Shown here in pieces: positions 54,975 through 64,000 of a DNA stretch of 64,000 bases. Below the pieces are notes generated by a model. The model had not been told where the DNA came from. It searched no databases and saw only the letters and a list, made by a program, of their open reading frames with translations. The translations under genes and the position numbers were made by a program. The stretch is taken from the NCBI GenBank assembly GCA_947474275.1, contig CANJHY010000003.1, positions 705 through 64,704 on the forward strand, in the 5' to 3' direction. Numbering within the stretch: the stretch's first letter is position 1; the number at the start of each line of letters is the position of its first letter. This stretch comes from Betaproteobacteria bacterium. GTDB taxonomy: Bacteria > Pseudomonadota > Gammaproteobacteria > Burkholderiales > SG8-41.

Positions 54975-55058
54975 CTATTCAACGCGGGTGTTCGCGGTTT
55001 CGATCAGCGTGTCGAACTTGATATGTAGCGATTTCAGGAAATCGGCGAATTCAGCCAG
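54975..55058 (-). pseudogene. Orphan C-terminal fragment of a Bug/TctC gene
   Basis: LAEFADFLKSLHIKFDTLIETANTRVE* resembles the C-termini of the intact Bug proteins in this window. Confidence 0.5.
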
Positions 55059-55077
55059 ACAGCGCATTCGAGGGCCG

Positions 55078-55869
55078 TCAGGTCCCGGTAAATCTGGGCT
55101 CGCGGCGGTCGAATCCTGCCTTCACGCCTTCCTTGAAGTCGTTCGTTTCGCGCAGCATCTGCTGCTGGAAGGCCTCGCGCTCGGTCGCGGCCCGAAACGC
55201 GGGAATGAGATCGTTGTTCAGCGTTTCACGCGTCGCCTGGACTGCGAGCGGCCCCGATTGCGCAAGTTGCGCGGCCATCAACTGCGCGGTCTCGCGCACC
55301 TTGTCCTGTTCGACCAGGCGGTCCGCGAGCCCCATCGCGACCGCTTCGTCACCCGGCACGCGGCGCCCGGTCAGGAACAGCCATTTGGCCGTTTGGTGGC
55401 CGACTAGCCGCGGCAGTGTGACCGTCATCCCAAAACCGGGGTGATAGCCGAGGGCGGCGAAATTGGCGGCAAGCCTCGCTTCCTTGCACGTTACGCGGAA
55501 ATCGGCGACTAGCGCCAGTCCCAGGCCGGCGCCGATCGCGCTGCCGTGAACCGCTGCGACGATAGGCTTGCGCGTCTGCACCAGACGCTGTGCCTCATGG
55601 TAAAGATGCCGCGGCCGCGCGGTGGGTTTGCCCGCCGCTTCGTCTTCGATGCGTTTTTTCAGGTTCGCGCCGGCGCAGAAGTGCTTCCCGGCAGCCGCCA
55701 GCACGATGCTGCGACATTCGATGTCCTCGTCGAGAGCCTCCAGCACTGCGGCGAGGCTGGCGATCAGATCGACGTCCAGAAAGTTGTTGGGCGGTCTTTG
55801 CAGTTCGACCGTCGCAACGTGTCCGTTCATGCTGACGCCGATATCCGCATTGCTCAATGATTTTTCCAT
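55078..55869 (-). CDS. Enoyl-CoA hydratase/isomerase (crotonase) family protein
   Basis: FCAGANL, KPIVAAVHGSAIGAG, DFKEGV. Confidence 0.9.
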   Translation of the reverse strand: MEKSLSNADIGVSMNGHVATVELQRPPNNFLDVDLIASLAAVLEALDEDIECRSIVLAAAGKHFCAGANLKKRIEDEAAGKPTARPRHLYHEAQRLVQTRKPIVAAVHGSAIGAGLGLALVADFRVTCKEARLAANFAALGYHPGFGMTVTLPRLVGHQTAKWLFLTGRRVPGDEAVAMGLADRLVEQDKVRETAQLMAAQLAQSGPLAVQATRETLNNDLIPAFRAATEREAFQQQMLRETNDFKEGVKAGFDRREPRFTGT

Positions 55870-56297
55870 TTGCTGGTGTCCCCGTATGTGGCCGCCCCCT
55901 TGACTGTCAGCCAGAGTTGCCGGTCACTAAATCAATTAAATCCGTACGTTCGTCGGTTTCAGCCGCATCTTCCATGAGATGCGTAGACATCCGCGCGGGC
56001 CACTTGTGCTCAGTTCGAGGCGCAATGATACCGCCGTTAGCGAAGGGGGCAAAATGATTGGCCTCAAAAATCCGGGGTGGCCGGAGAGTTTCAAGACGTC
56101 TTCCGGGTGCCCGCGAGCGTCTGCCGGTGCCGCGCCGACAACTGGAAACCTGTGAAGCCAATATGTATGGTTTAACAATAGCTCTACTAGCATACGCAAT
56201 GAAATTTCGTTTTACGCGGTTAGTGCCATCGGGCACAATTGCAATTGTCCGCGTTTGCCTGTCTCAAGAGCCGCCGTCAGCGCTCGAAAAATAAAAT

Positions 56298-58412
56298 ATG
56301 AAGACCAGAAAGTTAAGTCCGGACTTTTTCCTGCCTCGATCAGTAGCGCTCGTTGGCGCGTCCGGTGAACCGGGAAAGGTAAATTCCCGGGCGCAGCAGC
56401 TATTACGCATACACGGTTTCACCGGCAAGGTATTTCCGATTAACCCGCGGTATAAAGATCTGTTCGGTTTGCCGGCTTATCCAACTTTGTTGGCCGTTCC
56501 CGAGAAAATAGACCACGCTTTGATAATGGTGCCCGCCGCTGCCGTGCACGAGGTGGTGCGTCAGTGTTGTGAACGCCAGGTTGCAGCAGCAACCATATTC
56601 AGCTCCGGTTTTGCAGAACTGGGCGAGGAAGGGGCGGAACTGCAGCGACAGATCGTGGCGACAGCCCGGGATGGGGGAGTAAGACTATTGGGGCCCAATT
56701 GTCTTGGCCTGGTAAATGTTCCCGGACACACAACCCTTTCCCTGAACGCTGTTCTTGAGCAAGAACAATTGCGCTCCGGTCCGCTCAGTGTAATTTCGCA
56801 GAGCGGCAGCATGCTAGGCGCCTTGATTTCACGGGCGCAGGCGCGTGGCCTCGGCTTCTCCAAGCTTGTATCCGTGGGAAACGAATGTGATATCGGTGTG
56901 GGGGAGATCGCAGAACTTCTGGCGGATGATGCAGATACCGGCGCAATACTGCTGTTTCTGGAGGCTTTCCGGGATTCCACCCGACTTGCTGTCGCGGCAC
57001 GTCGCGCGTTTAAAAAGGGTAAGCCGGTCATCGCATACAAACTCGGACGTTCGGAAATCGGGCGCCGGGTTGCGGTGTCGCATACCGGCGCCATTGCGGG
57101 AGCCGCTGAGGTTTCAGACGCTTTTTTTCAGGCGCACGGCATTATGCGTGTAGACACAATGGAGAGCCTCTTCGAATTACCGCAGTTGGTCATGGGACAT
57201 AAGCCACCGGCACACCGCAGAGTGGCCATTCTCACAGGATCGGGAGGACCTGCCGGGATGATTGCAGATCGCCTGGGTACGCTGGGCGTCGAAGTCGCGG
57301 GTCCCACGGAAGAAGTGATAAGAGATTTAAATGAAAAAGGCGTAAAGATCTCGGCGTCCCCCGTCACCGATATTCCTATGGGAAGAAATGATAGCTCATA
57401 CAACATGATACTGAGTGCGCTATTGTCTTCGGATCATTGTGATGCGGTGATCTCGGTGAGTGGTTCAAGCTCGCAGACGAACCCACAAAAGATTGTTGAT
57501 CGTGTGTTTGTGCCTGAACGAAGCAAGAAGCCTTTGGCCGTATTTCTGGCGCCACGCGCCGATGAAGCGCTCGCTTTGCTGGGAAAGCAGGGAATAGCCG
57601 GATTCCGAACGCCGGAAGCATGTGCAGATTCGATGCGTGCATATCTCAACTGGCGGAGCCCCCAGAGTAACGAATCTATCCGTGCTGGAGAACTGGCGGG
57701 GCCGAATGCTATGCTGGCAGCTACACAACGGGATTCCCTGAACGAATGTGAATCACTGGGTTTGTTTTCGTCGCTCGGCATTCCATCCACGCACTGCAGG
57801 GTTGTATCCGGGCCGGCTGAAGCGGTCGATTTCGCGGATCCTGTCGCGGTCAAGATATTGTCGCCTGACATTGTCCACAAGACCGAAGCAGGTATGGTCG
57901 CGCTTAATGTCGTGCCGGCTGATATCGCGTCGGTCGTTTCCACGATGTTGGGCGATGCCGCGAAGAAATTTCCAAAGGCCGGCATCGATGGAATTCTCGT
58001 GCAGCGCATGGAGAGCGGTCTCGCGGAAGTGATCGTTGGCTATCGCCGGGATCCCGAGGTCGGGCCGATCGTTCTCCTGGGACTGGGAGGCATTGCAGCG
58101 GAGGTTCATGCTAACCATAGCGTGCGCGTGGCGCCGGTCAGTCTGCGGACCGCGGAAACCATGGTCAGTGAAATACCGCAACTCAAGACGCTGGCGGGTT
58201 TTCGCAATTTGCCGAGAGGGGACTGCACTGCTCTTGCGCACGCGATTCGCGCAATGTCTCTGCTGGCGCTCGTTACGCCGCGCGTCGTGAGTGAAGCCGA
58301 GATAAACCCATTGATCGTAAAGCGCGACGGCGAAGGAGTGGTAGCAGTCGATGGCCTGGTCGTGCTGGAACCAAGTTCTTCTCCGCAGCAAGAAGCGGCA
58401 GGTGAGAATTAA
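56298..58412 (+). CDS. ADP-forming acyl-CoA synthetase (acetate--CoA ligase family, fused alpha/beta)
   Basis: PRSVALVGAS, GPNCLG, SQSG, SHTGA phospho-His, HKTEAG, EINPL. Confidence 0.93.
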   Translation: MKTRKLSPDFFLPRSVALVGASGEPGKVNSRAQQLLRIHGFTGKVFPINPRYKDLFGLPAYPTLLAVPEKIDHALIMVPAAAVHEVVRQCCERQVAAATIFSSGFAELGEEGAELQRQIVATARDGGVRLLGPNCLGLVNVPGHTTLSLNAVLEQEQLRSGPLSVISQSGSMLGALISRAQARGLGFSKLVSVGNECDIGVGEIAELLADDADTGAILLFLEAFRDSTRLAVAARRAFKKGKPVIAYKLGRSEIGRRVAVSHTGAIAGAAEVSDAFFQAHGIMRVDTMESLFELPQLVMGHKPPAHRRVAILTGSGGPAGMIADRLGTLGVEVAGPTEEVIRDLNEKGVKISASPVTDIPMGRNDSSYNMILSALLSSDHCDAVISVSGSSSQTNPQKIVDRVFVPERSKKPLAVFLAPRADEALALLGKQGIAGFRTPEACADSMRAYLNWRSPQSNESIRAGELAGPNAMLAATQRDSLNECESLGLFSSLGIPSTHCRVVSGPAEAVDFADPVAVKILSPDIVHKTEAGMVALNVVPADIASVVSTMLGDAAKKFPKAGIDGILVQRMESGLAEVIVGYRRDPEVGPIVLLGLGGIAAEVHANHSVRVAPVSLRTAETMVSEIPQLKTLAGFRNLPRGDCTALAHAIRAMSLLALVTPRVVSEAEINPLIVKRDGEGVVAVDGLVVLEPSSSPQQEAAGEN

Positions 58413-58458
58413 GCTGGATCAGACGTCGGATAAGTGTATGGAAGCCGGAGGAGAAGTA

Positions 58459-59427
58459 ATGAGTGTCAAACGCATTGCGCGTTGGTTTGTTACCGTGATC
58501 TGGTGCGCTTCGAGCTTGGCTGGCGCGCAGCCCTATCCAATCAAGCCTATTCGATTAATCGTACCGTGGCCGCCGGGAGGGACAACGGATGTGCTTGGCC
58601 GCATGGCCGCCGCAAGACTTACGGAAACGTGGGGCGTACAGGTTGTCGTGGACAATCGCGCGGGCGCGGGCGGTAATATCGGATTCGAAGGTTGCGCAAA
58701 ATCCCCCCCTGACGGCTACACGCTGTGCATTATGACGGTCGCCCAGACGATTTCGCCCAGCATTTACACCAAACTCGGTTTCGATCCCATCAAGGATTTC
58801 TCGCACGTCACTCTTATGGCTATCGTGCCAAGCCTGCTATTGGTGCATCCCTCTCTGCCGGTTAAGAATGTCAGGGAATTTACAGCACTTGCCAGGGCGA
58901 AACCCGGCGCTCTTAACTATGCCTCTACGGGCAACGGCACCAGCCCGCATATGATGATGGAAATGTTTAAGACGATGACAAACACCAACATCGTGCACAT
59001 CCCATATAAAGGTGTTTCATTGGCGATGATTGATCAGATTTCAGGTCTCGTGGAATCTTCGTTCGGCACCGCCATCGGTACGTTGCCTTTTGTAAGGCAG
59101 GGAAAGATCCGCGCGCTCGCGGTAACCACGCGTGACCGGTTTCCCCCGCTTCCCGAACTGCCGACAATGGTGGAGGCCGGCGTCAAGGGCTTTGAGGCAA
59201 GTTCATGGACGGGCATGTCGATGCCCGCGGGCACCCCGCGCGAAATGGTATTGAAGGCCAATGCAGAACTGGTCAGGATGCTGACGGCACCCGAGATGCG
59301 GGAAAAGCTGCTTGCGATGGGCGGCATTGCTGTCGGTGACTCTCCGGAAGAGTTCTCAGCGTTCGTTAAGCGCGATACCGGACAGTGGGGCAGAGTCGCC
59401 AGGGCCGCCAAAGTTCGCGTTAACTAG
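58459..59427 (+). CDS. Bug/TctC substrate-binding protein
   Basis: GGAGGAG RBS; VPWPPGGTTD, DNRAGAGG, PDGYTL, HIPYKG. Confidence 0.92.
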   Translation: MSVKRIARWFVTVIWCASSLAGAQPYPIKPIRLIVPWPPGGTTDVLGRMAAARLTETWGVQVVVDNRAGAGGNIGFEGCAKSPPDGYTLCIMTVAQTISPSIYTKLGFDPIKDFSHVTLMAIVPSLLLVHPSLPVKNVREFTALARAKPGALNYASTGNGTSPHMMMEMFKTMTNTNIVHIPYKGVSLAMIDQISGLVESSFGTAIGTLPFVRQGKIRALAVTTRDRFPPLPELPTMVEAGVKGFEASSWTGMSMPAGTPREMVLKANAELVRMLTAPEMREKLLAMGGIAVGDSPEEFSAFVKRDTGQWGRVARAAKVRVN

Positions 59428-59488
59428 CCTGGCACCGGATCTTTTACAGCAGTTTGCAAGGCATGTGCTTTCACTTATGGATTAAGCG

Positions 59489-60250
59489 ATGGAAAACGTA
59501 GTCTTGTACGAGGTCACGGGCAATATCGCGGTTATCACAATTAACCGCCCGGAACGGCACAACGCAATCAGCCTGGCCGTGCGCGAGCAGCTAAGAGAGG
59601 CCTTCATCCGGTTTGAGGCGGACGCCACGTTGCGGGTTGCAATATTGACAGGCAGTGGAGACAAGGCTTTTTGCGCCGGTATGGATCTGAAAGAAGCGGC
59701 CGAACTGAAACTCCAGAAAACTCCCCCACTGCCGGTCCTTGGTAACAACATCAAAGTTTCCAAGCCGGTAATTGCCGCGGTAAACGGTCATACCTACGCC
59801 GCCGGATGGTTACTCGCTCAAATGTGCGACCTGTGCATCGCGTCCGATAACGCGTTATTTGGCATTACCGAAGCCAAAGTCGGTCGCGGGTTTGCCTGGG
59901 CGGTCCCTTTGCTGGAAATGCTTCCGCAGCGAATCGTGGTCGAGCTGCTAATGACTGGCCGCGTAATAGATGCAAAGCGCGCTTGCGAAATCGGGTTCGT
60001 AAATTACGTTGTACCGGCGGCCGAATTGATGGACAAAGCCCTCGAACTGGCGAGGGAGATCGCCGCGAATGCGCCGCTGACGGTAATGGCAGTCAAAGAG
60101 TTAGTCCAAATTTCCCGGGAGATGGGCCAAAGCGCGGCGTTAAAGTATGCGCGCCAGATGTTCGATGAGAAAGTGTATTTGAGTGAAGATGCCATCGAGG
60201 GGCCGAAGGCGTTCAAGGAAAAGCGGCCGCCCGTATGGAAAGGCCGCTGA
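59489..60250 (+). CDS. Enoyl-CoA hydratase/isomerase family protein
   Basis: INRPERHNA, FCAGMDL, KPVIAAVNG, DAIEGPKAFKEKR. Confidence 0.92.
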   Translation: MENVVLYEVTGNIAVITINRPERHNAISLAVREQLREAFIRFEADATLRVAILTGSGDKAFCAGMDLKEAAELKLQKTPPLPVLGNNIKVSKPVIAAVNGHTYAAGWLLAQMCDLCIASDNALFGITEAKVGRGFAWAVPLLEMLPQRIVVELLMTGRVIDAKRACEIGFVNYVVPAAELMDKALELAREIAANAPLTVMAVKELVQISREMGQSAALKYARQMFDEKVYLSEDAIEGPKAFKEKRPPVWKGR

Positions 60251-60313
60251 TTGTGCTGTCGGTAAACTCGTATGCAGTTGGTTAGTGCAGGCAATGAAGA
60301 TGGAGTGCAGATC

Positions 60314-60856
60314 ATGATTGAAAAAAATGTGCGGTGGGTGACGCCTGAAGCTGCGTCTCCCCAGACAGTCAAAGCGCGGGAGTATCGGCGTCCGGACAAA
60401 ATTACTTTTCGTCTCGGCATTTTGGACAATGCAAAAAGCAATGCAGATCACTTATTGCGCATGGTATCCGAATCATTGCAAGCGACGATTCCTGTCGCCT
60501 CAGTTATTCGCCGGCGCAAGCCTGGCCCGGCCAGGCCGGCAGAAACTGCACTGCTGGATGAACTCATGAAGGAGGCTGATTTCGTTGTCAGTGCGATGGC
60601 TGATTGAGGGGCCTGCACGTCGTGGAGTGTCCACGACATGTCACAGCTTCGTCATAAAGGCGTCGCAGCAGCGGTCATTTGCTCGGAGCCTTTTGTCCGG
60701 CTGGCAAAAGCCCAGGCAGCTATTGCTGGCGTGCCTGATTTGCCTCTGATCGTGATCCCGCATCCGCTCGGAGGGGCGACGCAGGACGAAGTTAAGGCGC
60801 GTGCCGAGGTTGCAATGAGTCAGCTTATTATTCTGGTTCGGGAACTAACGCAATGA
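60314..60856 (+). CDS. UGSC-family selenoprotein (UGA at 60605-60607 read as Sec; U-G-A-C motif), 180 aa
   Basis: ORFs 60272-60607 and 60638-60856 share a frame; readthrough gives GILDNAKSNAD...SAMAD-U-GACTSWSVHD...IPHPLGG; SECIS-like hairpin follows; GGAG RBS before ATG 60314 (alternative start 60272). Confidence 0.85.
60615..60641 (+). promoter_or_regulatory. Putative bacterial SECIS element
   Basis: GTCGTGGA-gtg-TCCACGAC perfect 8-bp stem (60619-60637), extended by GCA/TGT; G-containing loop starts 19 nt after the UGA. Confidence 0.7.
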
Positions 60857-61968
60857 GAGACTCAGGGATCCCCGGCGGCCTCCAGGCATACACCGATGGG
60901 CCTGACGATATCGAGGAGGCCTACGAGTTTTGCGCCGTGCGCGGTTGGTGCGATGGGTTGCCGATTATTCCGCCCACACCTGAGCGTGTCGAACGCATGC
61001 TCATGTTTTGTGACAGGGAGCGCGACAAACCGGTAATAGCGATACCCCCGCGTTACGGCGACGCAACCCCGATACTACTGGCCGCCAATGCGGTAATGGC
61101 GGGTTGCAAGCCAGAGTATTTTCCGCTGGTCATTCTGGCTCTGGAAGCGATGGCGGAGCAGACCTTCAACCTTTACGGTATCCAGACAACGACGCATCCG
61201 TGCGCGCCGCTCATAATTGTGAACGGGCCGATAGCGCGCGAGCTGAAAATTAATTCAGGCCATGGCGCTTTCGGACCAGGCAACAGAAGTAACGCGAGCA
61301 TAGGGCGCGCAATTCGCTTTGCCCTGGTCAACATCGGCGGCGCAAATCCGGGAGCCGGTGACATGGACACCTATGGTTCGCCGGCAAAATATACTTATTG
61401 CATAGCGGAAAACGAACAACAAAGCCCGTGGCAACCATTGAGCCTCGATGAAGGACATACTCTCGAAGTCACTACGGTGACCGTGGTTGCTGCAGAATGT
61501 CCCCATAATGTGAACGATCACGAAAGCACAACTGCGGAGGGAGTACTGAAGACCATGGCCGGGACCGTCGCCACTACTGGTTGTAATAATGCCCATCATG
61601 CATCGCGTCCGGTCGTCGCGTTTTGCCCGGAGCATGCGGCGACCATAGCCGGGGGCGGCTATACAAAGGACGACGTCAAGGCCTATTTATACGAACATGC
61701 ACAAATACCCTTGTCGAAATTTTCCACGGAAAATGTCGAACGCCGCCTGCGCTTGAAGTTTCCCCTTCGTTACGCGAATGCACCGCTGGACGCCCTCGTC
61801 CCGATGGTGCAACGTCCGGAGGACTATATCGTTATCGTTGTGGGCGGCGCCGGAAAGCATTCGGCATATATACCTACTTTCGGTTCCACCCGCCCGGTAA
61901 CGCGTGCGCTTCGTCACGCAGATGGGCATTTGGTGCGGTCGATACAAGAGCTGCGAAACGCCCGTTAG
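60853..61968 (+). CDS. Conserved uncharacterised partner of UGSC-family proteins
   Basis: ATGA overlap with the selenoprotein; GWCDGLPIIPPTPERV, NAVMAGC, TTHP, NASIGRA, HNVNDH, PEHA, GGAGKHS. Confidence 0.85.
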   Translation: MRDSGIPGGLQAYTDGPDDIEEAYEFCAVRGWCDGLPIIPPTPERVERMLMFCDRERDKPVIAIPPRYGDATPILLAANAVMAGCKPEYFPLVILALEAMAEQTFNLYGIQTTTHPCAPLIIVNGPIARELKINSGHGAFGPGNRSNASIGRAIRFALVNIGGANPGAGDMDTYGSPAKYTYCIAENEQQSPWQPLSLDEGHTLEVTTVTVVAAECPHNVNDHESTTAEGVLKTMAGTVATTGCNNAHHASRPVVAFCPEHAATIAGGGYTKDDVKAYLYEHAQIPLSKFSTENVERRLRLKFPLRYANAPLDALVPMVQRPEDYIVIVVGGAGKHSAYIPTFGSTRPVTRALRHADGHLVRSIQELRNAR

Positions 61969-62163
61969 TTGCCGGGAGTCAATCAAGTTTCACAATAGGT
62001 GTAAGCTAAAGTCCGGGAAGTCCAGTTGATCCAGGATGCAAAAGTCAGATCAACAATAAAGGTTGACGCTGATGGACTTGCAACTCGATATACACGCGGG
62101 CGGCACGCGCATCGCGGTATTTTTCCGCGCTACGCTCAAGGTTTAAACGCACACCCATCGCAT

Positions 62164-64000
62164 ATGGCCAAACTTATCCCCCAATCCGCGGCGCCTTCAG
62201 AGGTTGAATCTGATTTTGTCGTTGCGCGCGACGTCATGGTCGCCATGCGCGACGGCGTCAGGCTCGCCACCGACGTTTACCGCCCCGCGAGCAAAGGTAT
62301 GGCGGCCGCCGGCAAATTTCCGGTCATCCTCGAGCGCACGCCGTACGGCAAGGCGCAGGTCTCGCGCTCCGAGATCGACGTCGGTATGACGGTCTCGCGT
62401 CCGCGTCCGGAAGTCGCCGCATGGTTCGTGCGCCAGGGTTACGTCGTCGTCTACCAGGATTGCCGCGGCCGCTATGCGTCCGAAGGCGAGTTCGTCAAAT
62501 ATCTGAGCGATGGCGAGGACGGCTTCGACACCATGGCGTGGCTGATGGCGCAGCCATGGTGCAACGGTAAAGTCGCGACCATGGGGCTTTCATACGCGGC
62601 GCATACGCAAGGTTCGCTCGCCTGCCTGAACCCGCCGGGGTTGGCCGCGATGGTGATCGATTCGGGAGCGTTTTCCAACGCTTACCTGTCCGGCATACGC
62701 AGCGGCGGCGCGTTTGAAATGAAACAGGTGACGTGGGCATTCAACCAGGCGAAGGAAAGTCCCCTCGCCAAAGCCGACCCCGCGGTGCGCGCGGCCCTCG
62801 AAGCGGAAAATCTCATCGAGTGGTTCAAGGTCATGCCGTGGAAGCCCGGCCATTCGCCGGTGCGCTGGGTGCCGGAGTACGAGGATTACCTGTTCGAGCA
62901 GTGGACGCACGGCGCGTTCGACGGCTACTGGAAGCAGCTCGGCATTTATGCCGAAGGCTTTTACAAAAAATTCGCCGACGTGCCGCAGATTCACATGTCG
63001 AGCTGGTACGACGCCTATATACGCACCGCGACGGACAATTACGTTGCGCTCAAAAAACTTAAGCGCGGCCCCGTGCGCCTCATCATGGGGCCATGGACGC
63101 ACGGCGATCGCGCCAAGACTTTTTCGGGCGACGTCGATTTCGGCGCGGCGGCGACCATAGACAACAATCTCGCGCAGCACTGGCGCGAATTCCGCCTGCG
63201 CTGGTTCGATCACTGGGTCAGGGGTGTTGCCAACGGCGTGGACAAGGAACCCGCGGTGCGGCTGTTCCTGATGGGCGGCGGTTCCGGCCGCAGCAATGTC
63301 GACGGGCGGCTCGATCACGGCGGGCGCTGGATTGCCGGCGACGACTGGCCGCTGCCGCAGACGAAATACACCAATTACTATCTGCACGCGGACGGGCAAT
63401 TGACGCCGGCCAAGCCGGCAACGAACGCCGCGCCGCTGGCTTACGATTACGATCCCGCAAACCCGGTGCCGACGATGGGCGGACCGCTGACTTCGGGCGC
63501 GCCGGTGTTCGTCGGCGGGGCGTTCAACCAGCGCGAAGATGCGCGCTTTTTCGGCGTGCGCCATCCGGGTCTGCCGCTTGCCGCGCGCCATGACGTGCTG
63601 GTGTTCGAGACTGCGCCGCTCGCGGAAGACGTCGCAGTGATCGGCCCTATCGTCGTGCATCTGCACATCGCTTCGAATTGCATCGATACCGATTTCACCG
63701 CCAAATTGATCGACGTGCATCCACCGAACGTGGATTACCCGCGCGGCTTCGCGATGAACCTGTGCGACGGCATTCTGCGCTGCCGTTACCGGGCCTCATG
63801 GGAAAAGCCGACGTTGATGAAGCCGGGCAAGACGTACGAAATCACCATAGAGCCGTTTGCGACCTGCAACCTCTTCAAGGCCGGGCACCGCATCCGGCTC
63901 GATATTTCGTCCTCCAACTTTCCGCGCTACGACGTCAATTCGAACACCGGCGAACCCGAAGGCCGCGCGCAGACCAGGCGCGTTGCGACCAACACAGTGT
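62164..64000 (+). CDS. CocE/NonD family hydrolase (partial, runs off window end)
   Basis: ATG 62164; MRDGVRLATDVYRP, RTPYGK, QDCRGRYASEG, GLSY nucleophile, GPWTH, SSSNFPR; absent from the ORF track because no stop lies in the window. Confidence 0.92.
   Translation, partial: MAKLIPQSAAPSEVESDFVVARDVMVAMRDGVRLATDVYRPASKGMAAAGKFPVILERTPYGKAQVSRSEIDVGMTVSRPRPEVAAWFVRQGYVVVYQDCRGRYASEGEFVKYLSDGEDGFDTMAWLMAQPWCNGKVATMGLSYAAHTQGSLACLNPPGLAAMVIDSGAFSNAYLSGIRSGGAFEMKQVTWAFNQAKESPLAKADPAVRAALEAENLIEWFKVMPWKPGHSPVRWVPEYEDYLFEQWTHGAFDGYWKQLGIYAEGFYKKFADVPQIHMSSWYDAYIRTATDNYVALKKLKRGPVRLIMGPWTHGDRAKTFSGDVDFGAAATIDNNLAQHWREFRLRWFDHWVRGVANGVDKEPAVRLFLMGGGSGRSNVDGRLDHGGRWIAGDDWPLPQTKYTNYYLHADGQLTPAKPATNAAPLAYDYDPANPVPTMGGPLTSGAPVFVGGAFNQREDARFFGVRHPGLPLAARHDVLVFETAPLAEDVAVIGPIVVHLHIASNCIDTDFTAKLIDVHPPNVDYPRGFAMNLCDGILRCRYRASWEKPTLMKPGKTYEITIEPFATCNLFKAGHRIRLDISSSNFPRYDVNSNTGEPEGRAQTRRVATNTV

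Follow-up and report, generated by a model that had tools for sequence, protein, structure and literature searches.

We analysed a stretch of 64,000 nucleotides (nt) from a Betaproteobacteria bacterium (assembly GCA_947474275.1, contig CANJHY010000003.1, positions 705 to 64,704 of the forward strand), referred to below as the window, in which a gene encoding a selenoprotein of the UGSC family runs directly into a gene for a protein of 371 amino acids (aa), here called the partner, that belongs to an unnamed family. With a confidence moderately above even, we consider that these proteins are the two halves of one selenoenzyme, which would be fed by the thioredoxin system, act on a carboxylate-type substrate and probably be a reductase. 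The analysis shows the genes, the selenocysteine codon and its hairpin, the pairing with its fusions, the remote similarity of UGSC to GrdB and PrdB, the fusions to thioredoxin reductase and the lack of known relatives of the partner; we infer that the two proteins bind each other physically, that their chemistry is that of a reductase, what the individual residues do and to which class the substrate belongs. The features that carry this proposal are as follows, in window coordinates.

60272..60856, plus strand: UGSC family selenoprotein, 194 aa, with the motif D111-U112-G113-A114-C115 (PF24696, E 2.6e-45, and NF041046)
60605..60607, plus strand: in-frame TGA predicted to be read as selenocysteine (Sec), the sole in-frame TGA of the UGSC gene and at the invariant position of the family
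60619..60637, plus strand: hairpin resembling a selenocysteine insertion sequence (SECIS), with an 8-bp stem and a GUG loop, 11 nt past the TGA, from folding and comparison
60853..60856, plus strand: ATGA overlap of the UGSC stop and the partner start, seen directly in the sequence
60853..61968, plus strand: partner protein, 371 aa, unnamed family with no Pfam, NCBIfam or PDB match; core residues D34, C85, T114, N147, R152 and E186

The UGSC and partner genes form a conserved unit

Comparison was made with 77 loci on contigs of species other than the source species, one genome per species, spanning Betaproteobacteria, Binatia, Rokubacteria/Methylomirabilota, Chloroflexi, Acidobacteriota, Actinomycetota, one Bacillota isolate and two archaeal metagenome-assembled genomes. 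For gene neighbourhoods, matches to local profiles within 3 kb of the pair (near, 422 kb summed over the 77 loci) were set against those in 452 kb further out (far). The UGSC gene adjoins the partner gene on the same strand, either upstream or downstream, in 67 of the 77 loci. Where it lies upstream (56 junctions), the two reading frames are fused in 21 cases, overlap by 4 nt in 19 and by 1 nt in one; the remaining junctions have gaps of 0-30 nt (three), 31-100 nt (seven) or more (three), or lack a start codon (two). The original prediction had pointed out the ATGA at 60853-60856 in which the UGSC stop overlaps the partner start, and the sequence bears this out; because the same 4-nt overlap and in-frame fusion account for so many junctions elsewhere, the overlap in the window is not a matter of chance.

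Fusion occurs in both orders. Among 13 longer representatives that were scanned, four are complete UGSC-partner fusions, two are partner-UGSC fusions that end at the Sec codon, three begin just past the Sec codon, one (P0145) joins the partner to a thioredoxin reductase (TrxR) and three have no Pfam family. In the public gene calls of several fused forms (P0124, P0125, P0127, P0123 and P0138), the protein begins right behind the Sec codon or ends there. Since gene calls break at this codon, databases hold many shortened versions of the fused proteins.

The source genome itself holds 13 copies of the partner and about 10 of UGSC, adjacent or fused, each UGSC gene with one TGA. Its paralogous pairs have diverged together, down to 20-30% identity. 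Across nine adjacent pairs the pairwise identities of the two proteins correlate with r 0.72, a value reached in none of 5000 permutations, which argues that pairs duplicate and diverge as units. The partner was found in 40 of 41 genomes of the same bacterial family that were searched, with 2-48 matches each, a tally that includes one unpublished genome (G007). Adjacency, fusion in both orders, tight junctions and co-divergence together support the earlier proposal of a single selenol/thiol enzyme made up of UGSC and the partner; judged from these loci, the conserved unit is evidently UGSC plus partner only.

A gene of the DUF6282 family stands between, or just before, the UGSC and partner genes at four loci (L051, 1061-1918; L053, 3013-3861; L065, 5803-6678; L050, 6433-7308). 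This family has five matches near the pair and none far from it, at loci of Chloroflexi and Acidobacteriota type, and it may provide a third component in those lineages.

The TGA codon is predicted to encode selenocysteine

The UGSC protein of the window scores well above the family cut-offs, with 141.2 bits against NF041046 (cut-off 125) and 155.1 bits against PF24696 (cut-off 25), and is therefore a family member. U112 and G113 are invariant among 50 UGSC sequences. The 84 UGSC matches in the 77 loci comprise 68 with UxxC, three with UxxS, three with CxxC, four without a motif and six in which the match does not cover the motif; TGA occupies the Sec position in 71 of the 74 UGSC genes in which the motif was found. 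The hairpin at 60619-60637 has a predicted minimum free energy of -21.1 kcal/mol (z -2.2), and when 73 UGSC genes of other species were folded, the listed folds showed an equivalent hairpin, with the stem changed on both sides in L076/L103, L106 and L055. A search of Rfam over positions 55000-64000 at E<=1 gave no match, and the SECIS reading thus draws on folding and comparison. The source genome contains two tRNA-Sec genes, selB and selD. The conserved SECIS-like hairpin downstream, together with this machinery, indicates that the TGA at 60605-60607 is a genuine Sec codon.

The selD gene (C9, 37329-38255) has one in-frame TGA, and the selenophosphate synthetase of this organism is thus probably a selenoprotein itself. 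One tRNA-Sec gene adjoins selB on C169, and the second (C201, 7453-7547, minus strand) is found just past a Bug gene and a UGSC-partner fusion. The assembly (4.36 Mb in 215 contigs) is 94% complete with 5.3% contamination, and given this contamination the second tRNA-Sec copy could derive from another organism. Many contigs in two lake metatranscriptome libraries match the window only over a core of 35-39 nt within 60602-60640 and then diverge; these apparently stem from transcripts of further UGSC genes with the same core of Sec motif and hairpin.

UGSC has a flavodoxin-like model and appears remotely related to selenoprotein B

The AlphaFold2 model of the window UGSC (predicted local distance difference test, pLDDT, 91.2) consists of five parallel strand-helix units in a flavodoxin-like arrangement, with Sec112 at the start of helix 113-128. 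Foldseek matches listed for this model are flavodoxin, azoreductase, WrbA-like and other alpha/beta proteins, with E-values down to 7.5e-5 and TM-scores of about 0.45, and thioredoxins are not among them. The model appears to differ from the thioredoxin-like fold suggested for the family in 2008, in the passages of that paper that deal with UGSC (PMC2398784).

At the level of profiles, the GrdB model TIGR01917 is matched by 28 of 50 UGSC sequences at E<=1, with a best E of 5.6e-6, and its sister models are matched by 17 (TIGR01918), 14 (GrdF), 12 (GrdH) and five (PrdB) of the same 50. The GrdB match covers the region that holds Sec, residues 96-174 of the window protein aligning with model positions 330-403 of 431. 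These matches suggest a remote kinship between UGSC and the Sec domain of GrdB and PrdB.

The Grd and Prd reductases combine a selenoprotein B with the pyruvoyl proproteins GrdE or PrdA and draw on thioredoxin or a dithiol as reductant. Like UGSC, the B proteins (GrdB, GrdF, GrdH, PrdB) have Sec-x-x-Cys in a domain with reciprocal weak profile matches; both systems appear to join a selenoprotein to a second, substrate-activating component, and both are linked to thioredoxin or a dithiol reductant. The differences are substantial. UGSC corresponds to only the C-terminal 80-100 or so residues of B proteins of about 430 residues, the partner is unrelated to GrdE, PrdA or any other named family, and no second selenoprotein resembling GrdA was present in the open reading frames (ORFs) scanned beside the pair. 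Moreover, UGSC hosts are mostly aerobic heterotrophs of freshwater, soil and sea with many copies per genome, whereas Grd and Prd hosts are Stickland fermenters.

The partner represents an unnamed family with a conserved polar and cysteine pocket

The partner family is large. Of 8000 candidates scored, 6686 proteins belong at E<=1e-3, and a separate count gave 5302 clusters at 50% identity, 1334 of them at E<=1e-30; all of these proteins and clusters are unnamed or called 'hypothetical'. The partner has no match in Pfam or NCBIfam, the partner and both profiles gave only chance-level rows against PDB sequences, and the ESM Atlas returned its own family and clusters fused to UGSC, nothing more. 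Its AlphaFold2 model is of high confidence (pLDDT 95.2) and has no Foldseek match at E<=1e-3. VIA-align of the model against 48,161 chains gave a best Z of 4.0, which is noise by the calibration of the tool, the top matches being class I fumarate hydratase (Z 4.0 and 3.9), L-serine dehydratase (Z 2.5) and the PrpD/IRG1 family (Z 2.1). The fumarate hydratase match has a root-mean-square deviation of 5.8 over 189 residues, again at noise level, and class I (Fe-S) hydro-lyases use three Cys ligands for their 4Fe-4S cluster; C85 and C183 are the only conserved Cys residues of the partner. No well-characterised enzyme of unrelated function, which would have spoken against the earlier proposal, was matched by the partner in sequence or in solved structures.

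Among 96 partner genes, D34, N147, R152 and E186 are present in all 96, followed by C85 (94), T114 (93), W193 (90), C183 (80), H261 (79) and H336 (65). The potential metal-ligand motifs TTH, HNVNDH, PEHA and KH that had been noted in the sequence are indeed there and hold H115, H218, H223, H261 and H336. Among 66 homologues these are conserved at 47, 50, 35, 86 and 76%, respectively; as a His-cluster metal site the motifs fare poorly, since H115, H218 and H223 reach only 35-50%. Residue conservation instead indicates that the conserved site of the partner is a pocket of Cys, Asp, Glu, Asn and Arg, and R152 suggests a carboxylate substrate. The conserved pair G84-C85 was also considered as a candidate site of self-cleavage that would form a pyruvoyl group.

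A second, shorter partner paralogue, without profile positions of about 281-313, stands in tandem behind the first at L096, L098, L104, L105 and on contig C87 of the source genome (L022, 2886-5195). In L104 and L105 this second copy has Ala instead of Cys85, which suggests that it is a non-catalytic subunit.

A thioredoxin-linked mechanism is proposed for the pair

A link to thioredoxin comes from the longer members of the partner family. Among 38 homologues of more than 650 residues, 31 contain a Pyr_redox_2 domain (TrxR-like) and four contain UGSC; one has an amidohydrolase domain, one an fn3 domain and one nothing further. TrxR-like genes also occur five times near the pair and not once far from it, flanking L051, L065, L096 and L105.

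In the mechanism that we propose, the partner would supply the substrate site, built from D34, N147, R152, E186 and the near-invariant Cys85, and the flavodoxin-like domain of UGSC would supply the Sec-x-x-Cys motif at a helix N-terminus. The selenolate, acting with Cys115 and perhaps also with Cys85 of the partner, would give two electrons to the bound substrate, or attack it, leaving a Se-S bond that a TrxR-type flavoprotein or the thioredoxin system of the cell would re-reduce with NAD(P)H. The pair would thus work like the B component of the Grd and Prd reductases, with no pyruvoyl proprotein and without being a member of that family. In the window it would be placed in an island with a Bug receptor, an acyl-coenzyme A (CoA) synthetase, two crotonases and a CocE/NonD hydrolase, and given this setting the pair here probably acts on an organic acid taken up from outside, or on something derived from it. 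More tentatively, and with a probability clearly below even, the partner family might be a new class of catalytic subunit which, with a GrdB-like Sec module, carries out thioredoxin-driven reduction of imported carboxylates without pyruvoyl, in 2-48 substrate-specific copies per genome of freshwater Betaproteobacteria, many of them adjacent to Bug genes.

Several observations count against this mechanism. Ten of the 77 loci have no detectable UGSC. Three of these end at a contig edge (L046, L079, L097); for six or seven others (L059, L068, L072, L090, L094, L102 and perhaps L099, with only some 700 nt upstream) the contig end is no explanation, yet partners without UGSC keep C85 and C183, so that some partners may be active without it. 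The kinship with selenoprotein B would be distant, as the window UGSC scores 15.3 bits against GrdB, far below the family cut-off of 602.2, all matches to the B models (among them TIGR01917, TIGR01918 and TIGR04483) likewise stay well short of their cut-offs, and the Pfam GRDB model matches none of the 50 UGSC sequences. Likewise, none of 66 partner sequences matches any Grd or Prd model at E<=1, and since the partner shows no likeness to the proproteins GrdE and PrdA, Grd/Prd chemistry is not simply transferable to the pair. No TrxR-like gene stands beside any of the 11 loci of the source genome, where the housekeeping thioredoxin system would therefore have to serve. Finally, contigs assembled from two metatranscriptome libraries hint at expression but can prove neither a single transcript nor even transcription; they cover 56278-56448, 59325-59550 (the Bug/crotonase junction) and 60053-60555 (the crotonase/UGSC junction), with a 35-nt piece at 61084-61118 for the partner gene; RNA runs X23 and X24 yielded no contig, and neither these blanks nor the gaps carry any weight. 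DNA of the locus is present in lake and freshwater metagenomes of nine studies.

CoA and Bug genes appear to be local context of the pair

The remaining genes around the pair in the window are as follows.

55078..55869, minus strand: divergent gene of the crotonase/enoyl-CoA hydratase family (PF00378 ECH_1, E 9.5e-52); apparently local context
56298..58412, plus strand: NDP(ADP)-forming acyl-CoA synthetase, 704 aa (CoA_binding/CoA_binding_2, Succ_CoA_lig, ATP-grasp_5); apparently local context
58456..59427, plus strand: Bug/TctC periplasmic solute receptor (PF03401, E 1e-66); recurrent neighbour in this bacterial family
59489..60250, plus strand: crotonase/enoyl-CoA hydratase family (ECH_1, E 5.4e-57); apparently local context
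62026..64000, plus strand: CocE/NonD family hydrolase, exiting the window (Peptidase_S15 and PepX_C; TIGR00976, 374 bits); sixth co-oriented gene

The five co-oriented genes of the module described earlier, from synthetase to partner, are all in place on the plus strand with short gaps (43, 61 and 21 nt between synthetase, Bug, crotonase and UGSC, then the ATGA overlap), as is the second, divergent crotonase. The synthetase falls under every NCBIfam equivalog cut-off, and its acid substrate is thus not assignable from profiles. The Bug/TctC gene has an alternative start upstream at 58351 that would make it overlap the synthetase gene. The CocE/NonD hydrolase gene, absent from the earlier module, lies on the same strand at most 57 nt downstream of the partner; in the 77 loci this family has no match near the pair and one far. 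A scan for promoters and terminators gave counts equal to the shuffled expectation.

The strongest competing explanation, although an unlikely one, takes these genes as a dedicated CoA-dependent catabolic pathway, in which an acid would be bound by the Bug protein, converted to its CoA thioester by the synthetase and modified by one or both crotonases, and the UGSC/partner pair would act on the CoA ester, for example in a reductive cleavage of a C-S or C-X bond next to the thioester. In its favour, the genes from synthetase to UGSC share one orientation with 21-61 nt between them, and the RNA contigs bridge two of their junctions. Two further loci of the source genome also have CoA-related genes, one an NDP-forming synthetase and PrpD (C112), the other CoA-transferase III, a crotonase and HpcH (C122). 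Among other species, CoA-transferase III (11 near, 6 far) and acyl-CoA dehydrogenase (8 near, 3 far) are about twice as frequent near the pair as far from it, and by Pfam the pair has CoA genes as immediate neighbours in L032, L036, L040, L047, L055, L065, L070, L082, L084, L085, L089, L092 and L093.

As a general feature, however, the CoA link failed the gene-neighbourhood check. Any CoA-family gene lies within 3 kb at only 19 of 77 loci, with 30 matches near and 24 far; crotonases are no more frequent near than far (6 and 7), and NDP-forming synthetases have no near match and two far ones. The local hidden Markov models behind these counts were built from 1-8 seeds and undercount, as with AMP-binding, which has no near match although Pfam finds one beside L070. 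With Pfam itself, 131 ORFs no more than 3 kb from the pair in L030-L059 yielded CoA-related genes at 6 of the 30 loci, and 97 flanking or intervening ORFs in L060-L106 at 9 of the 47. Neighbour genes are greedy longest-ORF calls and sometimes an antisense ORF (L021, 7839-8969), so that some ORFs with no family are not genes; the G+C content of third codon positions, used as a gene filter, gave no discrimination.

The closest relatives give the same picture. In the four loci with the nearest partner relatives (66-72% identity), Bug genes stand beside the pair in all four, but no synthetase, crotonase, other CoA gene or CocE was matched in any of them. The closest paralogue in the source genome (61%) sits between fur and recN, and L033 has a recN/NAD-kinase/hrcA context in common with it. 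Elsewhere, pairs stand among amidases, an asparaginase, amidohydrolases, peptidases, MmgE/PrpD, ATP-binding cassette (ABC) family-5 and tripartite ATP-independent periplasmic (TRAP) binding proteins, DUF6282 and TrxR-like genes. At L090, one of the loci without UGSC, the partner has a glycyl-radical enzyme and an ABC family-5 binding protein as neighbours. Within the source genome, crotonase is the only CoA family enriched, and only nominally so (2 of 11 loci against 0.31 expected, P 0.034), the window being one of the two.

As to the suggested link to a Bug receptor, 8 of the 11 loci of the source genome have a Bug gene no more than 1.5 kb away, where 2000 random placements would lead one to expect 4.0 (P 0.012); this weakly supports the receptor as a usual neighbour in this bacterial family. 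Against a closer tie, this is an extreme 'orphan receptor' genome, with about 485 TctC/Bug matches in its 4.36 Mb, next to 69 matches to MmgE/PrpD, 38 to CoA-transferase III, 31 to crotonase, 25 to amidase and 18 to NDP-forming synthetase. Over the 77 loci, Bug genes occur at 14 (24 matches near, 16 far), in Betaproteobacteria only. The cluster in the window is like the Bug/TctC 'orphan receptor' islands of Bordetella-type Betaproteobacteria in having one Bug gene with cytoplasmic catabolic enzymes and unlike them in its selenoenzyme pair, which would be an additional recurring passenger; no description of such a passenger was found in the literature searched. Because CoA genes do not recur near the pairs and Bug genes are only modestly enriched, these genes are best read as local context of a kind usual in Bug-rich Betaproteobacteria and not as a defining part of the pair system, and CoA activation evidently is not a general property of it.

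Other roles for selenium in the pair are less probable

A second alternative, which we rate below the CoA pathway and regard as distinctly improbable, keeps selenium out of the carbon chemistry of the substrate: UGSC would be merely a selenium 'thioredoxin' that keeps the partner's Cys85 (and Cys183) in the reduced state, or else the pair would detoxify peroxides or disulfides. The UxxC motif at a helix N-terminus and the common fusions to and neighbourhood of TrxR would suit such a role, DsbA-like genes adjoin the pair in L043 and L044, and UGSC is classed with thiol oxidoreductases where it is treated in PMC2398784 and PMC13188914. Substrate-diversified enzymes fit better than a housekeeping antioxidant, however, because the 40 positive genomes have 2-48 partner copies each and because the pairs have co-diverged so far and stand in varied catabolic and uptake contexts. 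The invariant Asp, Asn, Arg and Glu of the partner likewise point to a small-molecule site. Least probable is non-redox catalysis, in which Sec112 and Cys85 would serve as nucleophile or acid-base in an isomerase, lyase or group transfer on a carboxylate, without any net input of electrons: the top structural matches of the partner, weak as they are, belong to hydro-lyases and related enzymes acting on dicarboxylates and the pairs of the source genome have no TrxR gene nearby, but those matches are at noise level, a TrxR-like flavoprotein is fused in most of the longer forms and the Sec domain appears related to reductase selenoproteins.

Significance for UGSC selenoproteins

UGSC corresponds to the 'UGSC-containing protein' of the Global Ocean Sampling (GOS) selenoproteome of 2008 (PMC2398784). 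The sections of that paper on the family mention a fusion of UGSC to a domain called 'Unknown_1', which may be the partner, and record the family as most used in freshwater, which is also the source habitat of the window. Since then UGSC has been listed as one of the commonest selenoproteins in metagenomes of the ocean and, especially, of freshwater, with no function attached (PMC2398784, PMC13188914), and a 2026 review, where it touches on the family, still describes its functions as largely uncharacterised (PMC13188914). The literature on UGSC and selenoproteins that was searched, which consists only of catalogues and reviews, contained no assigned function for UGSC or the partner, in agreement with the original prediction.

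For annotation, our analysis implies that gene callers break these proteins at the Sec codon, that thousands of 'hypothetical proteins' fall into what would be one enzyme family and that the CoA genes of the window offer no basis for naming the pair. Now that UGSC has an apparently obligate partner, a probable source of electrons and conserved residues for a putative active site, the question of its function becomes experimentally approachable. If the tentative reading of the partner as a new catalytic subunit is true, the stop/start overlap or fusion would tie synthesis of the catalytic half to successful Sec insertion, and much of the turnover of organic acids in lakes would depend on selenium.

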